Positions 27,888 through 32,000 of a stretch of 32,000 nucleotides of DNA are shown piece after piece. The position numbers were made by a program, and so were the translations under genes. The notes under the pieces were generated by a model that saw only the letters and a list, made by a program, of their open reading frames with translations, searched no databases and had not been told where the DNA came from. How positions within the stretch are numbered: the stretch's first letter is position 1; every line of letters starts with the position of its first letter. The stretch is from Sphingomonadaceae bacterium. Lineage in GTDB: Bacteria; Pseudomonadota; Alphaproteobacteria; Sphingomonadales; Sphingomonadaceae. The DNA lies in assembly GCA_965234565.1 (NCBI GenBank), contig OZ248513.1, positions 499,667 to 531,666 on the forward strand, written 5' to 3'.

Positions 27888-28541
27888 TTAAGACGGGCGT
27901 CCCAACCACCACCGGTAAGTCAGCCATGCGCAAAGTGGCAATATGACTGCACCCAACATTGCGAGCCCGCCTGAATTGGTCGACATCGCCGCAGCCCCAA
28001 TTCCTGCATAAACGAATGCGACCGCCAGATTGGCCAACCCCGTCAGCAGCAGGAAAAGCCGAAGCGGCATCGCTGACATGCCTGCTGCAAGCGATGCCAA
28101 TTCGGCGAACACCGGAACGGGTCGCGACAGGATCAAAAGGAGAGGCCCAAAACCCGCAGCAACACGGTGCGCACGCTCAAGTTCCTGTTCACCCAACAAC
28201 CGCCGTGCGAGCGGCCGTGCAGCTATTGCGCCCGCGCCATAGCCCAATAGGCTTGCTGCCATCAGGCCGATCCAGATCACTGCCATTCCACCCGCAAAAC
28301 CGAATATTGCCCCGGCAAGTGTATTGGTAACGCCGTTGGGAACGGGAAGGAAAATATCGAGCGCAAGCGCTGCAATGATAAGTGAAGCCACCATCATCGG
28401 GTGGTGCCGCGCCTTATCAGCGGCGGCATTGGCGATCTGTTCAATCTGGTCCGCAAAAACCAGCGGCCCGAGCAGGACCAAGGCACCGATCGCAGCAAGC
28501 GCCAGCCAGCGCCCCAAGGGGCGATGGGCGCTCACTCCCAC
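27888..28541 (-). CDS. TVP38/TMEM64 (DedA/VTT-domain) family membrane protein
   Basis: 217 aa, polytopic and Gly/Ala-rich. The track start is a GTG at 28539-28541, preceded directly by an in-frame TGA with no obvious SD. The 5' end abuts the compositional break. Confidence 0.6.
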   Translation of the reverse strand: MGVSAHRPLGRWLALAAIGALVLLGPLVFADQIEQIANAAADKARHHPMMVASLIIAALALDIFLPVPNGVTNTLAGAIFGFAGGMAVIWIGLMAASLLGYGAGAIAARPLARRLLGEQELERAHRVAAGFGPLLLILSRPVPVFAELASLAAGMSAMPLRLFLLLTGLANLAVAFVYAGIGAAAMSTNSGGLAMLGAVILPLCAWLTYRWWLGRPS

Positions 28542-28568
28542 TCAACGATTCACTTCTATGAAACATAT

Positions 28569-28662
28569 ATAAATCAATTAGTTAGCTCCAATTTTACGTT
28601 TTGTGTAACTAATGCGATTTAAGATTTATTCCAATAAATCAATTACTTAGGTATGTAATTGA
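28569..28662. repeat. Repeat cluster of two 17-nt direct repeats plus an 8-8-8 inverted-repeat site
   Basis: ATAAATCAATTAGTTAG (28569-28585) and ATAAATCAATTACTTAG (28634-28650) match at 16/17. TCAATTAC (28639-28646) and GTAATTGA (28655-28662) are perfect inverted repeats around the 8-nt spacer ttaggtat. Confidence 0.6.
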
Positions 28663-28738
28663 AATCTCGTGTCGTAGGTGCACAATGTGTAAACATCATA
28701 CTTACGCAAACCGTCTCTTTCCAGTGCCTTTCTCGTGA

Positions 28739-29158
28739 TTATTTCGCTTTCGAACCAACGCCAGTGACGCTGCTCAAAGCAGTATCAAGCTCGCCGTTCA
28801 AAACAGCTTCCTTTACCGTTGAGAGAACCGTGCTGACCTCTGACGCATTAGTGCATTGAATAGCGTTCTTGCCCTTCGCAAGCTCGATCGGTTTGCTGCC
28901 ATAACGCACTGTTAGTTGCACTGTATCGTCAGCGTTCACGACCCACCATCGTTTGATGCGCTTTGTTACTTCACGACGATGCTGATTGCCGCTTTCGTCA
29001 GTGACAGTAACAAACTTGCTTGGTGTATATTTTGGGTCTGTAGAAAGTTTGATCTGCTGATCGATCTTATCTGCCAGTTTACGACGACGCACGAAAATGC
29101 GCCCTTGTGCTGTTTCTGGTCGAAACTCGATCAGCTTCAGCGATGATATTAGCGACAT
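28739..29158 (-). CDS. Hypothetical basic protein (139 aa), island-borne
   Basis: ATG at 29156-29158 is preceded by AAGGAG at 6-nt spacing. Lys/Arg-rich (RRRKLADK, KRIKRWW). I recognise no family. Confidence 0.65.
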   Translation of the reverse strand: MSLISSLKLIEFRPETAQGRIFVRRRKLADKIDQQIKLSTDPKYTPSKFVTVTDESGNQHRREVTKRIKRWWVVNADDTVQLTVRYGSKPIELAKGKNAIQCTNASEVSTVLSTVKEAVLNGELDTALSSVTGVGSKAK

Positions 29159-29257
29159 TGCATTCTCCTTTTTCGAGAACTCAATGTGAATCCTTCATTT
29201 TGATATTCCTACCGAAATGTAGCCTCGCAAAAACTCAAGCTTTAAAGTTTAAAGTAA

Positions 29258-29305
29258 GCTGTCGGTTTTCCCGACGATCAATGCGTTGTCGGGAAAACCG
29301 ACAGC
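29258..29305. other. Perfect 18-bp-stem hairpin with a 12-nt loop, either a terminator or a candidate nick/origin site
   Basis: GCTGTCGGTTTTCCCGAC (29258-29275), loop GATCAATGCGTT, then GTCGGGAAAACCGACAGC (29288-29305). It is preceded by the tandem TTTAAAG TTTAAAG (29241-29254). Confidence 0.7.
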
Positions 29306-29322
29306 GCATCGTTTGTCAGTTC

Positions 29323-29356
29323 AGTTTTCTGTTCCGCTCTCCTAAAACAGAAAACT
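29323..29356. other. Second hairpin (11-bp stem, 12-nt loop) touching the stop codon of the 101-aa gene
   Basis: AGTTTTCTGTT (29323-29333) and AACAGAAAACT (29346-29356). Confidence 0.55.
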
Positions 29357-29661
29357 CACCCAGCCAGATCGAACTCAACACTGTCAGCATCAACCAACGA
29401 ACGGCACTTGATGCTCATTGATGCAAGTTGCTGCGCCAATTGCTGATAGCGCGGCAGCGCTCCCAACTGTTCAGCGGCATTTTGTAATCTACTCGCACAT
29501 ATCGCAATTTTGCCAAGACTGGGTTCTGTTTTTTGATGACGCAGCTTACGCAAATACCCTTCCGAACAACCTAACCAATGTTCGCTGAACTCGCTTTCAG
29601 TTGCGGCAATTCCTTTGTCTTTTAAAAACCCAAGCACTTCAAAAATAATATCTTTTTTCAT
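29356..29661 (-). CDS. Small HTH-like protein (101 aa), candidate regulator of the island
   Basis: ATG at 29659-29661 with GGAGGG 9 nt upstream. The segment SEFSEHWLGCSEGYLRKLRHQKTEPSLGKIAICASRL has the spacing of an Xre/Cro-type helix-turn-helix. It is divergent from the Rep-like gene. Confidence 0.6.
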   Translation of the reverse strand: MKKDIIFEVLGFLKDKGIAATESEFSEHWLGCSEGYLRKLRHQKTEPSLGKIAICASRLQNAAEQLGALPRYQQLAQQLASMSIKCRSLVDADSVEFDLAG

Positions 29662-29736
29662 CGTAAACTACCCTCCGTGATAAATACTCTTAAGCAACAA
29701 GTGACTTGCTCACTGTATTTATCTGGAGGAATGGGA

Positions 29737-30336
29737 ATGGTCGCAAAATCGTTAGTACGACTACACTGGGCGAAATGGGCATCTTCATATGACTGGGATA
29801 TTTGCGGCACGCTAAACTTCGCAACGGGGTGCAAAGTTGGTGTCGATGAAGCTCAAAGGCGATGGGCTCAGTTCTGGGGCAAGTTGGATCGCATTTGCTA
29901 CGGGCAGTCACGCGGTCATCAACAGCGCATCTCACGGTTTGTTTACACGCACTGCGGCAGCAATGGCGACAATGTGCATTCGCACTTTATGGCACGATCT
30001 GCGGGCGACACGAAAGAGTTCTGTATACTTCTTAATGCGCTTTGGGCTGGCTTGGAACACGCGGGCGCTGCTGTTACTGCACAAAATGAAATACTGCCGA
30101 TCTTCAGCAAACAACGAGCTTCTTGGTATCTGCTTCACGAAGATCACGACGGTGCGATGAGCGGTTTTAATGCGAAGCTGACACACACAGAGCATCAGCC
30201 CAAAGTGCGTGACACTGCGCTGATCGATCTGCGATCAGCAGCAGATCGCTTCCAGCACATCGCAGATGCTACAACTGCTTACGAAGAGCATCTTGCACGG
30301 GCTGAGCAGCGATACATCAGACGCAACGCAAAATAA
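29737..30336 (+). CDS. HUH/Rep-like protein (rolling-circle initiator or relaxase-like; Inovirus-Gp2-like motif order)
   Basis: GGAGGA (29725-29730) lies 6 nt before the ATG at 29737. Ordered motifs are ICGTLNF, then RRWAQFWGKLDR, then RFVYTHCGSNGDNVHSHFMA (HxH followed by hydrophobic residues), then SWYLLHE as a Tyr candidate. The family assignment is unverified. Confidence 0.55.
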   Translation: MVAKSLVRLHWAKWASSYDWDICGTLNFATGCKVGVDEAQRRWAQFWGKLDRICYGQSRGHQQRISRFVYTHCGSNGDNVHSHFMARSAGDTKEFCILLNALWAGLEHAGAAVTAQNEILPIFSKQRASWYLLHEDHDGAMSGFNAKLTHTEHQPKVRDTALIDLRSAADRFQHIADATTAYEEHLARAEQRYIRRNAK

Positions 30337-30384
30337 CCAGACAGCTATGCTGCGGCGAAATCGTGCGTCTTATGGATGAGGCAA

Positions 30385-30406
30385 TGTGCTGAGTGCTCTC
30401 AGCACA
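30385..30406 (+). terminator. Stem-loop downstream of the Rep-like gene
   Basis: TGTGCTGAG, tgct, CTCAGCACA (9-bp stem, 4-nt loop), 49 nt after the stop. There is no clear T-tract, so terminator function is uncertain. Confidence 0.35.
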
Positions 30407-30575
30407 AGTCTTCATAATACCCAAAAGACAGACACATTAAGAAACAGTCAAAAGTTTTTGAAAACGACATAGGTCGTTGGAAATCAACAAAATCAGTTTG
30501 GAGATTTCTGGTAGGAATAAGATACTGATTAATTTATATTTCTGTAATAGGAAATGTTAATCGGACACAGGCAAA

Positions 30576-31145
30576 ATGGCTAAGGCAAAGGTTCTCAGCA
30601 AGGAAGAGATCAAGCGTGTGATGCGTATCGCTGACACAGGCAGAAACGGTCTTCGGGATCGTGTCGCACTGTCTCTCAGCATACTCGCAGGAATGCGTAT
30701 CGGGGAAATCGCGGCGCTCAAGATCGGTGATGTGCGCGGCATCGATGGCAACGCAGTCAGTGTGATCAATCTCAGAAAACATCAAACGAAGGGCAATCGA
30801 TCACGGCGGGTGTTCGTCAGCGACGAGCTTCGAAAGCTGCTGAACAGCTATCTTGCGGCGATCACTAAACTCGACGACAGCAAGGCTCTCATTCGCAGCA
30901 CTCGTACTGGAGGACACTTCAGCAATGTTTCGCTAAGCTTGCGCTTCAAGGCGATATATCTCGCTACTGGCATCACCACGAGCAGTCATTCTGGTCGCAG
31001 AACATTTGCAACACGCTTAAACGCTGCTGGCATCGGGATGGCAACGATACAGCAAGCGATGGGACATAGCTCAATACAAACGACTGCTGGATATTGCTGG
31101 GTCAGCGATGAACAGTTAGCAAATGCAGTAAATATTGTATCTTAG
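30576..31145 (+). CDS. Tyrosine recombinase, catalytic domain only (189 aa)
   Basis: The complete catalytic set is readable: R41 (AGMRIGE), K72 (HQTKGN), H138-x-x-R141 (SHSGRRTF), H164 (MGHSS) and Y173 (TTAGY). There is no N-terminal core-binding (SAM-like) domain. Confidence 0.85.
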   Translation: MAKAKVLSKEEIKRVMRIADTGRNGLRDRVALSLSILAGMRIGEIAALKIGDVRGIDGNAVSVINLRKHQTKGNRSRRVFVSDELRKLLNSYLAAITKLDDSKALIRSTRTGGHFSNVSLSLRFKAIYLATGITTSSHSGRRTFATRLNAAGIGMATIQQAMGHSSIQTTAGYCWVSDEQLANAVNIVS

Positions 31146-31146
31146 C

Positions 31147-31524
31147 TTAAAAGTCTGAAAGATACTTTACCATATTATAAGCTTTAAGACTATTAAGTCT
31201 TTTTAAAAACTCTTTCTTATTTTTTTCATTTTGCTTTTCATACCAAGCCTTATTATAATGCTTACCTTCAATAAGATATGATTCTAAATTATTATATGAT
31301 TGCTGACTTGAAAAAATACTTGCTCTTGTTACTGTATCTTCAGTTTCGCAAATTGGGCAAATAAGTTTTACAGTTCCGTGTTTGGTGCCAACAGGAATTA
31401 CAAAGTATATTTTTTGTTTTACGTATTGTTGTCTAAGCACGAATGGAGTTGAGTTTTTGCATTTTGAGCAAACTTTTTTTCCAGTATATCCTATGAACTT
31501 TGTTCCAATTTCCTGCTCTAACAT
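31147..31524 (-). CDS. Zinc-ribbon orphan protein (125 aa), extremely AT-rich gene
   Basis: CSKC...(43 aa)...CPIC pair and a Lys/Asn-rich helical C-terminus. GGGAAG lies upstream of the ATG. The gene is convergent with the recombinase gene, with 1 nt between the stops. Confidence 0.55.
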   Translation of the reverse strand: MLEQEIGTKFIGYTGKKVCSKCKNSTPFVLRQQYVKQKIYFVIPVGTKHGTVKLICPICETEDTVTRASIFSSQQSYNNLESYLIEGKHYNKAWYEKQNEKNKKEFLKRLNSLKAYNMVKYLSDF

Positions 31525-31658
31525 TAGCTTCCCTTAATTATCGATGTTGCTAATTCTTTTGAAATATAATCAAAGTTTGGACAAATAGGACATTTAAATG
31601 CATATTGCTTACTATACTTCAGAGTAAGTACTCCAATAATTCCAAACTCACTTGCATC

Positions 31659-32000
31659 TGATCTGCCCCCTTCTGGGTGGTCCAAAATCTATGTTATTTT
31701 GGACACGGAAGGAAAAGACGAATGCCATTCAAGAAACACACGCCGGAGGAGATTATCGGCAAGCTGCGTGAGGCGGAGATTGTGCTGGCGCAGGGAGGGA
31801 CGACAGCGGACGCTTGCCGCCGGCTATCGATCAGCGAGCAGACCTATTATCGCTGGCGCAAGGAATATGGCGGTCTGAAGACCGATCAGGCTCGCCGGAT
31901 GAAGGATCTGGAGAAAGAGAATGCGCGGCTACGCCGTGCGATCTCCGATCTCACTCTCGATAAGCTGATCCTGCAAGAGGCTGCTCGGGGAAACTATTGA
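31659..32000 (+). mobile_element. IS3-family insertion sequence, left end (truncated by the window edge)
   Basis: Candidate left inverted repeat TGATCTGCCCCCTTCTGGGTGG starts at 31659, exactly where G+C rises again (32/60 at 31861-31920). It is followed by an IS3-type orfA. Confidence 0.8.
31722..32000 (+). CDS. IS3-family transposase OrfA (HTH and leucine-zipper part)
   Basis: MPFKKHTPEEIIGKLREAEIVLAQGG...TYYRWRKEYGG...LEKENARLRRAISDLTLDKLILQEAARGNY is the typical IS3 OrfA. The TGA falls at 31998-32000. The orfB/frameshift region lies outside the window. Confidence 0.85.
   Translation: MPFKKHTPEEIIGKLREAEIVLAQGGTTADACRRLSISEQTYYRWRKEYGGLKTDQARRMKDLEKENARLRRAISDLTLDKLILQEAARGNY

Follow-up and report, generated by a model that had tools for sequence, protein, structure and literature searches.

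A low-G+C segment upstream of DedA in a Sphingomonadaceae genome is probably one half of a small integrative element inserted at guaA

We analysed a low-G+C segment in a 32,000-nt stretch of a Sphingomonadaceae genome (contig OZ248513.1, positions 499,667 to 531,666; hereafter the window, in whose own numbering all positions are given). The segment is genuine, horizontally acquired foreign DNA. We consider it probable that it represents the attL-proximal half of a site-specific integrative element of about 6 kb inserted at guaA, probably mobilizable or replicating by a rolling-circle mechanism, and that this particular copy has been interrupted by an insertion sequence (IS). The core of the attachment (att) site is shared by attL, attB and attR, as in integrative mobilizable elements, with attR and an additional attP-like junction coming from related elements. 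The segment encodes a divergent HUH-type protein, a small tyrosine recombinase and two proteins of the Pfam families DUF6626 and DUF6641, and these genes, DUF6641 in some subtypes only, recur in complete relatives, which carry a large integrase as well.

The segment stands out clearly from its surroundings in composition. The background G+C content is 0.601 (500-nt windows over positions 1-28500; standard deviation 0.028, minimum 0.528), that of 28546-31658 is 0.438, with its 500-nt windows at z = -2.9 to -10.2, and that of the sub-segment 31146-31658 is 0.296. An earlier sequence-only reading of the window had described a sharp fall in G+C at the left edge, five open reading frames (ORFs) and strongly structured non-coding DNA. 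The fall (from 0.60 to 0.44) and all five ORFs were found, and the structured DNA corresponds to a perfect 18-bp inverted repeat at 29258-29305 and to a region, 29222-29312, that folds as single-stranded DNA (ssDNA) with -26.2 kcal/mol (z = -7.3 against shuffled sequences). The same reading took the segment for an integrated mobile element, which is now borne out by the att core, by the empty site and by the direct repeats at both ends of relatives. It also called the roughly 200-aa (amino acid) protein HUH/Rep-like, in agreement with its motifs, predicted fold and transitive homology, and the 189-aa protein a core-only tyrosine recombinase, in agreement with a PF00589 domain that starts at residue 5 and an intact active site. 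Its further proposals, that the element is complete in 3.1 kb and that the small recombinase integrates it, were not supported, as discussed below. The features of the segment are collected in Table 1; contigs and loci of related elements are cited by L numbers.

Table 1. Features of the foreign segment and its flanks in the window
Feature	Position	Strand	Description
DedA/VTT-family host gene	27888-28541	-	Pfam VTT_dom, E = 1e-16; G+C 0.601; left chromosomal flank
attL crossover core	28534-28545		ACTCCCACTCAA, 12 bp; imperfect extension to ~28553
AT-rich left arm	28546-28738		two direct copies of ATAAATCAATTA(G/C)TTAG, at 28569-28585 and 28634-28650
DUF6641 protein, 139 aa	28739-29158	-	PF20346, E = 3e-15; phrog_31551, E = 3e-13
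Site A	29226-29259		34 nt, CGCAAAAACTCAAGCTTTAAAGTTTAAAGTAAGC; palindrome CTTTAAA-G-TTTAAAG
Two inverted 17-bp palindromic boxes	29258-29305		TGTCGG-N5-CCGACA; 18-bp-arm hairpin, 100% complementary
DUF6626 protein, 101 aa	29356-29661	-	PF20331, E = 5e-21; divergent from the HUH gene
HUH-type single-tyrosine nuclease, 199 aa	29737-30336	+	H81-x-H83 and Y131; assigned from family alignment and predicted fold
Conserved intergenic region	30337-30575		239 nt, upstream of the small recombinase
Catalytic-domain-only tyrosine recombinase ('sRec'), 189 aa	30576-31145	+	PF00589 (Phage_integrase), residues 5-178
Orphan protein, 125 aa	31147-31524	-	cargo slot, G+C 0.30; two CxxC pairs in the translation
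Truncated cargo ORF	31524-31658	-	3' part, 44 codons; 5' part removed by the IS
IS3-family insertion sequence, left end	31659-32000	+	terminal TGATCTGCCCCC; OrfA from ~31701; G+C 0.556

The left edge is a genuine attachment site

The core ACTCCCACTCAA forms attL in the window and in the related contigs L018, L022 and L016, lies beside guaA as attR in L016 and L024, and is found again at a tandem, attP-like junction in L018. The GTG start of the DedA gene (28535 or 28541) falls inside the core. By looking up the exact DedA protein in public assemblies we found empty-site contigs. In four metagenome contigs (L072, L074, L075 and L076), which encode a DedA protein identical to that of the window, DedA and ACTCCCACTCAA are followed directly by TCGTACCCGGCGGCTTTGACG..., the 3' end of guaA, so that the attB site is empty. 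The window agrees with these contigs through the core at 28534-28545 and diverges immediately beyond it. Alignment with island-free genomes, which had been suggested as a check together with the sequence-only reading, in this way defines the left end and the core, and the boundary placed at 28542 in that reading was correct to within a few bases. We conclude that the left edge is a genuine attachment site, which lies in the last codons of guaA and overlaps the start of DedA in uninterrupted genomes. Because contig L073 ends exactly at the core and contig L002 begins 30 nt to the left of where the core ends, the sampled lakes appear to contain filled and empty alleles side by side.

L018, which has two copies, and L022 match the AT-rich left arm next to the core at 95% identity. 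The two ATAAATCAATTA(G/C)TTAG repeats of this arm are candidate arm-type protein-binding sites.

At the empty sites the guaA stop overlaps the DedA start as GTGA. This overlap suggests that the two genes are translationally coupled in uninterrupted genomes. The insertion separates DedA from guaA and places AT-rich element DNA upstream of DedA, the expression of which may be altered as a result.

A family of small integrative elements with exchangeable integrases

Homologues of the 199-aa HUH protein were collected by a protein search (49 clusters), from species-representative genomes (11 loci) and from Joint Genome Institute (JGI) metagenomes (34 loci). These homologues come almost entirely from Sphingomonadaceae of fresh water (Sphingorhabdus, Novosphingobium and other Sphingomonadales). 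Gene order was judged among close relatives, with at least ~45% identity to the 199-aa protein, wherever the locus spanned enough DNA. The gene encoding DUF6626 lies divergently upstream of the HUH gene at all 28 of 28 loci, and the small recombinase gene lies downstream of it at 21 of 21, usually after a spacer of ~240 nt; these genes thus co-occur elsewhere, which the sequence-only reading had named as a check. Beyond the small recombinase many loci have a 54-aa ORF and then a variable cargo slot, which is followed by a conserved minus-strand pair, encoding a 141-aa protein and a 112-aa fragment of a DnaQ-like DEDD exonuclease, and by a palindromic site, site B. In every complete relative a large tyrosine integrase (413-496 aa) stands beside att at one end of the element. 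The backbone thus runs from the att core through DUF6641 (in some subtypes), site A with its palindromic boxes, DUF6626 (minus strand), HUH (plus strand), the intergenic region and the small recombinase (plus strand) to the cargo slot, the DnaQ-like 112-aa and 141-aa genes (minus strand), site B and the large integrase beside att. Complete relatives measure 5.0-6.2 kb, apart from that in L016, which reaches 9.7 kb with extra cargo.

Each type of integrase is associated with its own target. Elements with a 445-aa integrase occupy the 3' end of tRNA-Lys(UUU), where they are flanked by perfect 46-bp direct repeats ~5.0-5.1 kb apart (L020, L021 and L017, the genome of the isolate Novosphingobium sp. 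APW14); L010 and L011 have tandem copies. Those with a 413-414-aa integrase occupy guaA, with the core ACTCCCACTCAA at attL, attR and attP-like junctions, and in L077 and L078 guaA directly adjoins the 413-aa integrase. A 428-aa integrase goes with the 3' end of a gene for a SEC-C-motif protein (17-bp repeat, 5864 bp apart), and a 496-aa integrase with the 3' end of rpsI (11-bp repeat TTAGCGCTTCG, 6.2 kb apart). A catalytic domain was matched in the 413-aa and 496-aa integrases, and the SAM-like and catalytic matches of the 445-aa integrase were below threshold. The att sequence of the tRNA-Lys subtype is absent from the window, and ARAGORN found no tRNA gene there. The earlier remark that no tRNA flanks the island is correct for the window; it holds only since the present subtype targets guaA, and sister elements do sit in tRNA-Lys.

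The closest complete relative, element a of L018 (8799-14730, 5.9 kb), is 84-95% identical to 28534-31133 of the window; beyond this stretch come its DnaQ-like and 141-aa genes, site B, the 413-aa integrase and the next att core. Contig L040 has a 99-bp terminal overlap and comprises a 5130-bp unit, which is the integrated element of L020 circularly permuted at 100% identity and joined through att. A circular excised form had been named as something to look for; L040 represents either such a circle or a tandem array. Tandem pairs at one att site are frequent, and the copies are related but non-identical (L010, 1-9665; L011; L018, 8799-17696). Such arrays would give a resolution-type recombinase a substrate.

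No genes for type IV secretion or coupling proteins were seen in the gene tables of the complete elements, only some of whose ORFs were scanned with profiles. The same gene tables contain no capsid, morphogenesis or lysis genes. Neither an oriT nor a helper conjugation system was identified, and the island DNA has no match among plasmid records.

The small recombinase is probably not the integrase

The 189-aa small recombinase scores 102.3 bits against PF00589, with a cutoff of 27.1. R41, K72, H138, R141, H164 and Y173 are invariant in 14 small-recombinase sequences, distant ones included. The protein has no N-terminal core-binding or arm-binding domain, and the ORF cannot be extended, its start being the first after an in-frame stop. 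Across elements with the four att sites and integrase types it is 72-86% identical. In the same elements the HUH protein is 51-81% and the DUF6626 protein 43-89% identical, and among the homologues compared no protein is better conserved between subtypes than the small recombinase. Because its sequence does not change along with the target, the small recombinase is unlikely to choose the target, and it is probably not the integrase. Homologues of ~190 aa, ~39% identical over 96% of the length and annotated only as 'site-specific integrase', are found on 470 plasmid records, the hosts being mostly Acinetobacter, Piscirickettsia, Legionella and Vibrio.

These data bear directly on the idea of a self-sufficient minimal element of 3.1 kb, in which the 189-aa recombinase integrates and excises and the HUH protein replicates or mobilizes the element. 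The small recombinase has every catalytic residue and is the only recombinase visible in the window, and attL is genuine. However, position 31658, which had been taken for the right end of the element, is not an att site; it is the last base before an IS3-family insertion sequence that cuts an ORF. No second copy of ACTCCCACTCAA was found elsewhere in the window when one mismatch was allowed. In addition, all complete relatives have a large integrase adjoining att, whose four types pair with the four att sites while the small recombinase remains 72-86% identical, and the small recombinase lacks an N-terminal DNA-binding domain. We therefore regard a minimal element as highly improbable: the 3.1 kb are the stretch from attL to the IS, and integration is better assigned to a large integrase whose type tracks the target site.

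The conserved intergenic region upstream of the small recombinase (30337-30575) has a mean column identity of 82% over 10 loci, and its identity to the window is 69-86%, compared with 64-81% for the HUH coding sequence. A search of Rfam (E <= 1) gave no match in the island, this region included. We considered a structured RNA and set it aside, the covariation found by RNAalifold being modest (6 of 44 pairs). In a hairpin near 30380-30400, a T-A pair is changed to C-G between loci by way of a T-G intermediate. Scans for promoters and terminators returned sites no more numerous than in shuffled sequence. The region is a candidate promoter combined with a recombination or resolution site. Resolution systems are known in which the site adjoins the recombinase gene, and by analogy this region is our preferred candidate for the site at which the small recombinase acts.

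Another reading of the small recombinase is that of a FimB/FimE-like invertase that flips a promoter segment, which would make the island a phase-variable expression module and not a replicon. In size and domain content the protein fits the core-only invertases of ~200 aa, and it aligns over its full length to NF007370 (E = 5e-8) and NF007371 (E = 2e-6). However, Xer-type models match far more strongly (E = 1e-22 to 1e-26), the 239-nt upstream region is collinear in 10 of 10 aligned loci with no inverted variant, and the inverted repeats that surround it are weak (71-78%). An invertase is therefore extremely unlikely.

The 199-aa protein is probably a divergent HUH-type nuclease

The 199-aa protein has no family match in Pfam, NCBIfam, PHROGs or PADLOC, and none in the PDB by sequence or profile search. 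A profile search of 1.84 billion cluster representatives returned 190 relatives at E <= 1e-3, of which the best 150 are all 71-350 aa long. In an alignment of 71 family members, reaching down to ~20% identity, two columns alone are invariant, H81 and Y131; M1 (the start), D51, R67, G74, N79, H83 and W103 are nearly invariant. H81 and H83 form the motif H81-S-H83, in which H83 is kept in at least 90% of the 71 members, and both histidines lie on a predicted strand (80-86). Y131, the putative catalytic tyrosine, lies in a predicted helix (125-133) C-terminal to the HUH motif. The AlphaFold (AF2) model has a pLDDT (predicted local distance difference test) of 85 and a pTM (predicted template modelling) score of 0.85, with a GTLNF motif on the first strand. 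Eleven of the 71 relatives match PF23343 (REP_ORF2-G2P; best E = 4.5e-6), and the window protein itself does not. A Foldseek search against the viral models of BFVD gave matches with a probability of ~1.0 and E-values of 2e-4 to 1e-2, and every named match listed is a microvirus 'Replication initiator protein' or 'Replication associated protein'. Taken together, sequence and model support the assignment of the 199-aa protein as a divergent HUH/Rep-like nuclease, and make it a candidate rolling-circle initiator and/or relaxase. Profile and structure searches, which had been recommended with the sequence-only reading, thus recognised the two DUFs, Phage_integrase and an HUH-like fold, but placed the 199-aa protein itself in no curated family.

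The viral flavour of these matches raises the question of an integrated ssDNA phage or satellite, microvirus- or inovirus-like, in which Rep-driven rolling-circle replication would serve packaging. The best fold matches are microvirus replication initiators, relatives match the inovirus/plectrovirus-type REP_ORF2-G2P, a unit of 5-6 kb resembles small ssDNA phages, and two backbone proteins match PHROG families of unknown function. However, capsid, morphogenesis and lysis genes appear in the gene table of no complete element, and relatives of the HUH protein were found in none of 2.9 million IMG/VR contigs and none of 50,697 phage records. A phage origin of this kind is therefore very unlikely.

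Distant HUH relatives (27-33% identical, ~146 aa) were found on the chromosome of Candidatus Pelagibacterales MiE-29 (L027) and at metagenome loci L053-L068. In L027 the HUH relative lies ~2 kb from a tyrosine integrase that adjoins tRNA-Leu, and integrases lie within a few kb in L054, L063 and L066. These sequences suggest that the family is part of a larger superfamily of such elements, small and integrative, whose hosts are streamlined Alphaproteobacteria of fresh water.

Sites A and B and the exchange of modules

Site A lies 3' of DUF6626 and is found at the same position in L007, L010-L012, L015, L018 and L020, even where the flanks no longer align. The far end of every complete relative carries site B, with the palindrome CTTAAAA-G-TTTTAAG. 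The 15-nt palindromes of sites A and B differ at two symmetric positions, and each is still perfect. In the present copy the palindrome CTTAAAAGTTTTAAG is expected to the right of the IS, between the 141-aa gene and the integrase, if the right half is intact. We regard site A as a candidate for an origin, a nick site or a recombination site. One or two TGTCGG-N5-CCGACA boxes are found within 60 bp of site A at other loci, in a variable arrangement. Because the arrangement varies between loci, we read the boxes as candidate binding sites for a dimeric protein and not as a structural hairpin.

Homology between subtypes breaks at site A. L018 and L022 share the block 28534-29224, which comprises the att arm and DUF6641, at 95% identity, and the match stops abruptly at 29224. 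The block 29226-31054 is 79-81% identical in the tRNA-Lys-type elements L010-L012, which lack the first block, and homology with L010-L015 begins exactly at 29226. Because the homology blocks break exactly there, these alignments indicate that att/integrase modules and core modules have been exchanged at or beside site A. In view of the sharp homology blocks we also considered an integron-like cassette array and set it aside; whole att/integrase modules changing places account for the blocks, and attC-like repeats were not seen.

The two DUF proteins lie on either side of this break. In guaA-type and SEC-C-type elements DUF6641 forms part of the module next to att; elements of the tRNA-Lys type lack it. 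DUF6626 is probably a regulator or accessory protein. Its single-sequence model is all-helical with a pLDDT of 66, a fold search with this model was uninformative, and its profile gave no PDB match by sequence search. A literature search for DUF6626 and DUF6641 found no papers.

The break at site A also permits a more radical reading, in which the core, from site A through DUF6626, HUH, the small recombinase, cargo and the DnaQ-like/141-aa pair to site B, is a mobile unit of its own. The HUH protein would nick site A, terminate at site B and release a single-stranded circle from the integrated copy, and the small recombinase would recombine the folded palindromic sites and so insert the circle into another integrase/att 'platform'. 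This would explain why one core is combined with four unrelated integrase/att modules, why homology breaks at site A and why the small recombinase is the most conserved protein. If it were true, it would be a two-enzyme system of ssDNA module exchange, conceptually between integron cassettes and rolling-circle transposons. We consider it improbable, and prefer an integrative element moved by its large integrase.

The right edge, the insertion sequence and cargo

The minus-strand frame at 31524-31658 is open up to the IS boundary, and the IS has therefore cut a gene. OrfA of the IS matches HTH_Tnp_1 (E = 2e-17), and the IS runs off the window end. Two contigs, L001 and L002, reach 29-30 nt into the IS before they end, and the end of L080 falls exactly on 31658. 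Assembly breaks at repeats are the expected behaviour of de Bruijn graphs. The break of L080 exactly at 31658 suggests that the sample from which it comes contains both genomes that have the IS and genomes that lack it. The IS insertion is apparently polymorphic in lake metagenomes, which points to a recent landing in the cargo gene.

The 125-aa orphan occupies the cargo slot, and relatives carry other genes at its position. Only sub-threshold zinc-ribbon matches were obtained for it, no phage matches, and it forms a singleton cluster. A CARF assignment was considered and dropped: the PADLOC match (0.002), the sole PADLOC match among the island proteins, was treated as noise. In tRNA-Lys-type relatives from freshwater metagenomes, the cargo includes a 293-aa class A beta-lactamase (L010, 8403-9284; L011, 3168-4049; L012-L014). 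This protein scores 299 bits against the NCBIfam class A equivalog model, with a cutoff of 200; its nearest family is PAU, for which it stays under the cutoff. A resistance-type gene is thus carried by a 5-kb integrative element.

The chromosomal region from the ArsC-family gene to guaA differs between related genomes (L016, 2341-7198; L022, 1257-4327, between ArsC and the element). In L016 it holds HEPN_AbiV, an MFS transporter, a sulfatase and an acetyltransferase, and in the window an asparaginase-like gene and DedA. Because the gene content between ArsC and guaA varies in this way, the neighbourhood is a variability hotspot even apart from the element.

Proposed mechanism and its weak points

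In the integrative-element reading, which we favour, the large integrase would carry out both integration and excision. The attL, attR, attP and attB junctions of the relatives and the way the integrase type tracks the target point to this, and the same would apply to the present copy. The HUH protein would nick site A and/or site B of the excised circle and so start rolling-circle replication and/or act as a relaxase for transfer by way of a helper conjugation system. The small recombinase would act on an internal site, either its conserved upstream region or sites A and B, and might resolve multimers and tandem arrays or exchange modules. An IS3-family element would have landed in the cargo region, and the right half of the element, with the DnaQ-like/141-aa pair, site B, the integrase, attR and guaA, would lie beyond the window or be lost.

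Several points weigh against this reading. The window ends 342 nt into the IS, short-read assemblies break there, and the right half of this copy is unseen. A search with the L018 integrase gave no homologue attributable to this genome among the best 120 of 729 hits, and the integrase of this copy may be absent or degraded. What the small recombinase does is conjecture, and nicking, replication and transfer by the HUH protein are predictions from sequence and model. The fold search of the PDB gave weak matches (E = 0.08-0.6, TM score 0.26-0.29), to ferredoxin-like folds and to the Rep nuclease domains of geminivirus, circovirus, AAV (adeno-associated virus) and parvovirus, and the 199-aa protein itself matched no curated HUH model. 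HUH-protein relatives are also missing from plasmids, as they are from the phage records and IMG/VR contigs searched, and there is therefore no independent sign of episomal life, L040 (possibly a tandem array) aside.

Some of these points would also fit a dead remnant, from which an IS-mediated rearrangement or deletion has removed the integrase and attR and whose genes are possibly decaying or domesticated. The IS does lie within the cargo region and truncate an ORF, and none of the best 120 integrase homologues was attributable to this genome. However, the four backbone ORFs are intact and their proteins are 72-97% identical to their counterparts in complete elements. The apparent polymorphism of the IS in metagenomes speaks for a recent event, and the lack of an integrase among the best 120 hits is weak evidence, since there were 729 hits in all. 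A dead remnant therefore seems unlikely to us, though a substantial possibility for this copy, and an integrative element with a recently interrupted cargo region is the reading we retain.

Comparison with known systems

Small integrative elements with an HUH protein are a kind already known. Integrative mobilizable elements (IMEs) that pair a tyrosine integrase with a relaxase resembling rolling-circle initiators have been documented, with the 3' ends of guaA and rpsI as well as tRNA genes among the listed targets, and of 144 streptococcal elements 118 have a relaxase related to such initiators (PMC5704250). Streptococcal IMEs such as IMESag-rpsI resemble the family described here in being small and chromosomal, in using a tyrosine integrase, in being flanked by short att duplications that lie at the 3' ends of conserved genes, in having an HUH rolling-circle-type protein in place of a canonical relaxase, in lacking mating-pore genes, as far as the gene tables of the present family show, and in carrying a variable cargo slot (PMC5704250). 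Unlike these, the present family resides in freshwater Alphaproteobacteria, its HUH protein falls outside the Pfam and NCBIfam families, it has a second, core-only recombinase conserved throughout, DUF6626 and the DnaQ-like/141-aa pair, and its mobilization is only predicted.

The known guaA islands GIsul2, the Brucella suis IncP island and ATE-1 are larger than the elements of this family. As proposed for the present element, they are integrated at the 3' end of guaA by a tyrosine integrase, and the gene is preserved. Their maintenance genes are a theta-type RepA or RepC, or a toxin-antitoxin pair (PMC5704250). In this, by the review's description, they differ from the family.

The initiators of Microviridae, Inoviridae and Plectroviridae (PF23343) share with the 199-aa protein an HUH motif on a beta strand, a downstream tyrosine in a helix and similarity of fold. 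In contrast to them, the 199-aa protein is below family thresholds and has a single conserved tyrosine, and the element is without virion genes. FimB and FimE and the small 'site-specific integrase' genes on plasmids of Acinetobacter, Legionella and Vibrio are like the small recombinase in consisting of a catalytic domain only with an intact active site; unlike the case of FimB/FimE, no invertible segment was found beside the small recombinase. The pSAM2-type elements of actinomycetes, with int, xis, a rolling-circle Rep and an FtsK-like transfer gene, are about twice the size of the family's elements. The logic they share with that proposed for the family is insertion at a conserved gene by a tyrosine integrase and rolling-circle replication of the excised circle.

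No match to the gene set was found among described elements, in line with the sequence-only reading, which did not recognise it as a described type. With no curated HUH family, no papers found on DUF6626 or DUF6641 and no relatives in plasmid, phage or viral collections, the family appears to be undescribed. Two of its features are unusual: an obligatory second recombinase that is poor in domains, and integrase modules that can be interchanged.

Biological significance

These integrative elements, at 5-6 kb very small, form a coherent family. Its hosts, Sphingorhabdus, Novosphingobium and relatives, are Alphaproteobacteria that are abundant in fresh water. The HUH proteins of the family make up a new HUH-nuclease branch, which numbers only ~190 representatives in 1.84 billion protein clusters, and two Pfam domains of unknown function, DUF6626 and DUF6641, are assigned a genomic context. 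The integrase/att modules are interchangeable between guaA, tRNA-Lys, rpsI and the SEC-C-motif gene, and the cargo can be a class A beta-lactamase. The family offers a compact natural system in which to study how an HUH enzyme and two tyrosine recombinases share excision, replication or transfer, and resolution. In the genome analysed here, the insertion has uncoupled DedA from guaA, and the element was later interrupted by an IS.

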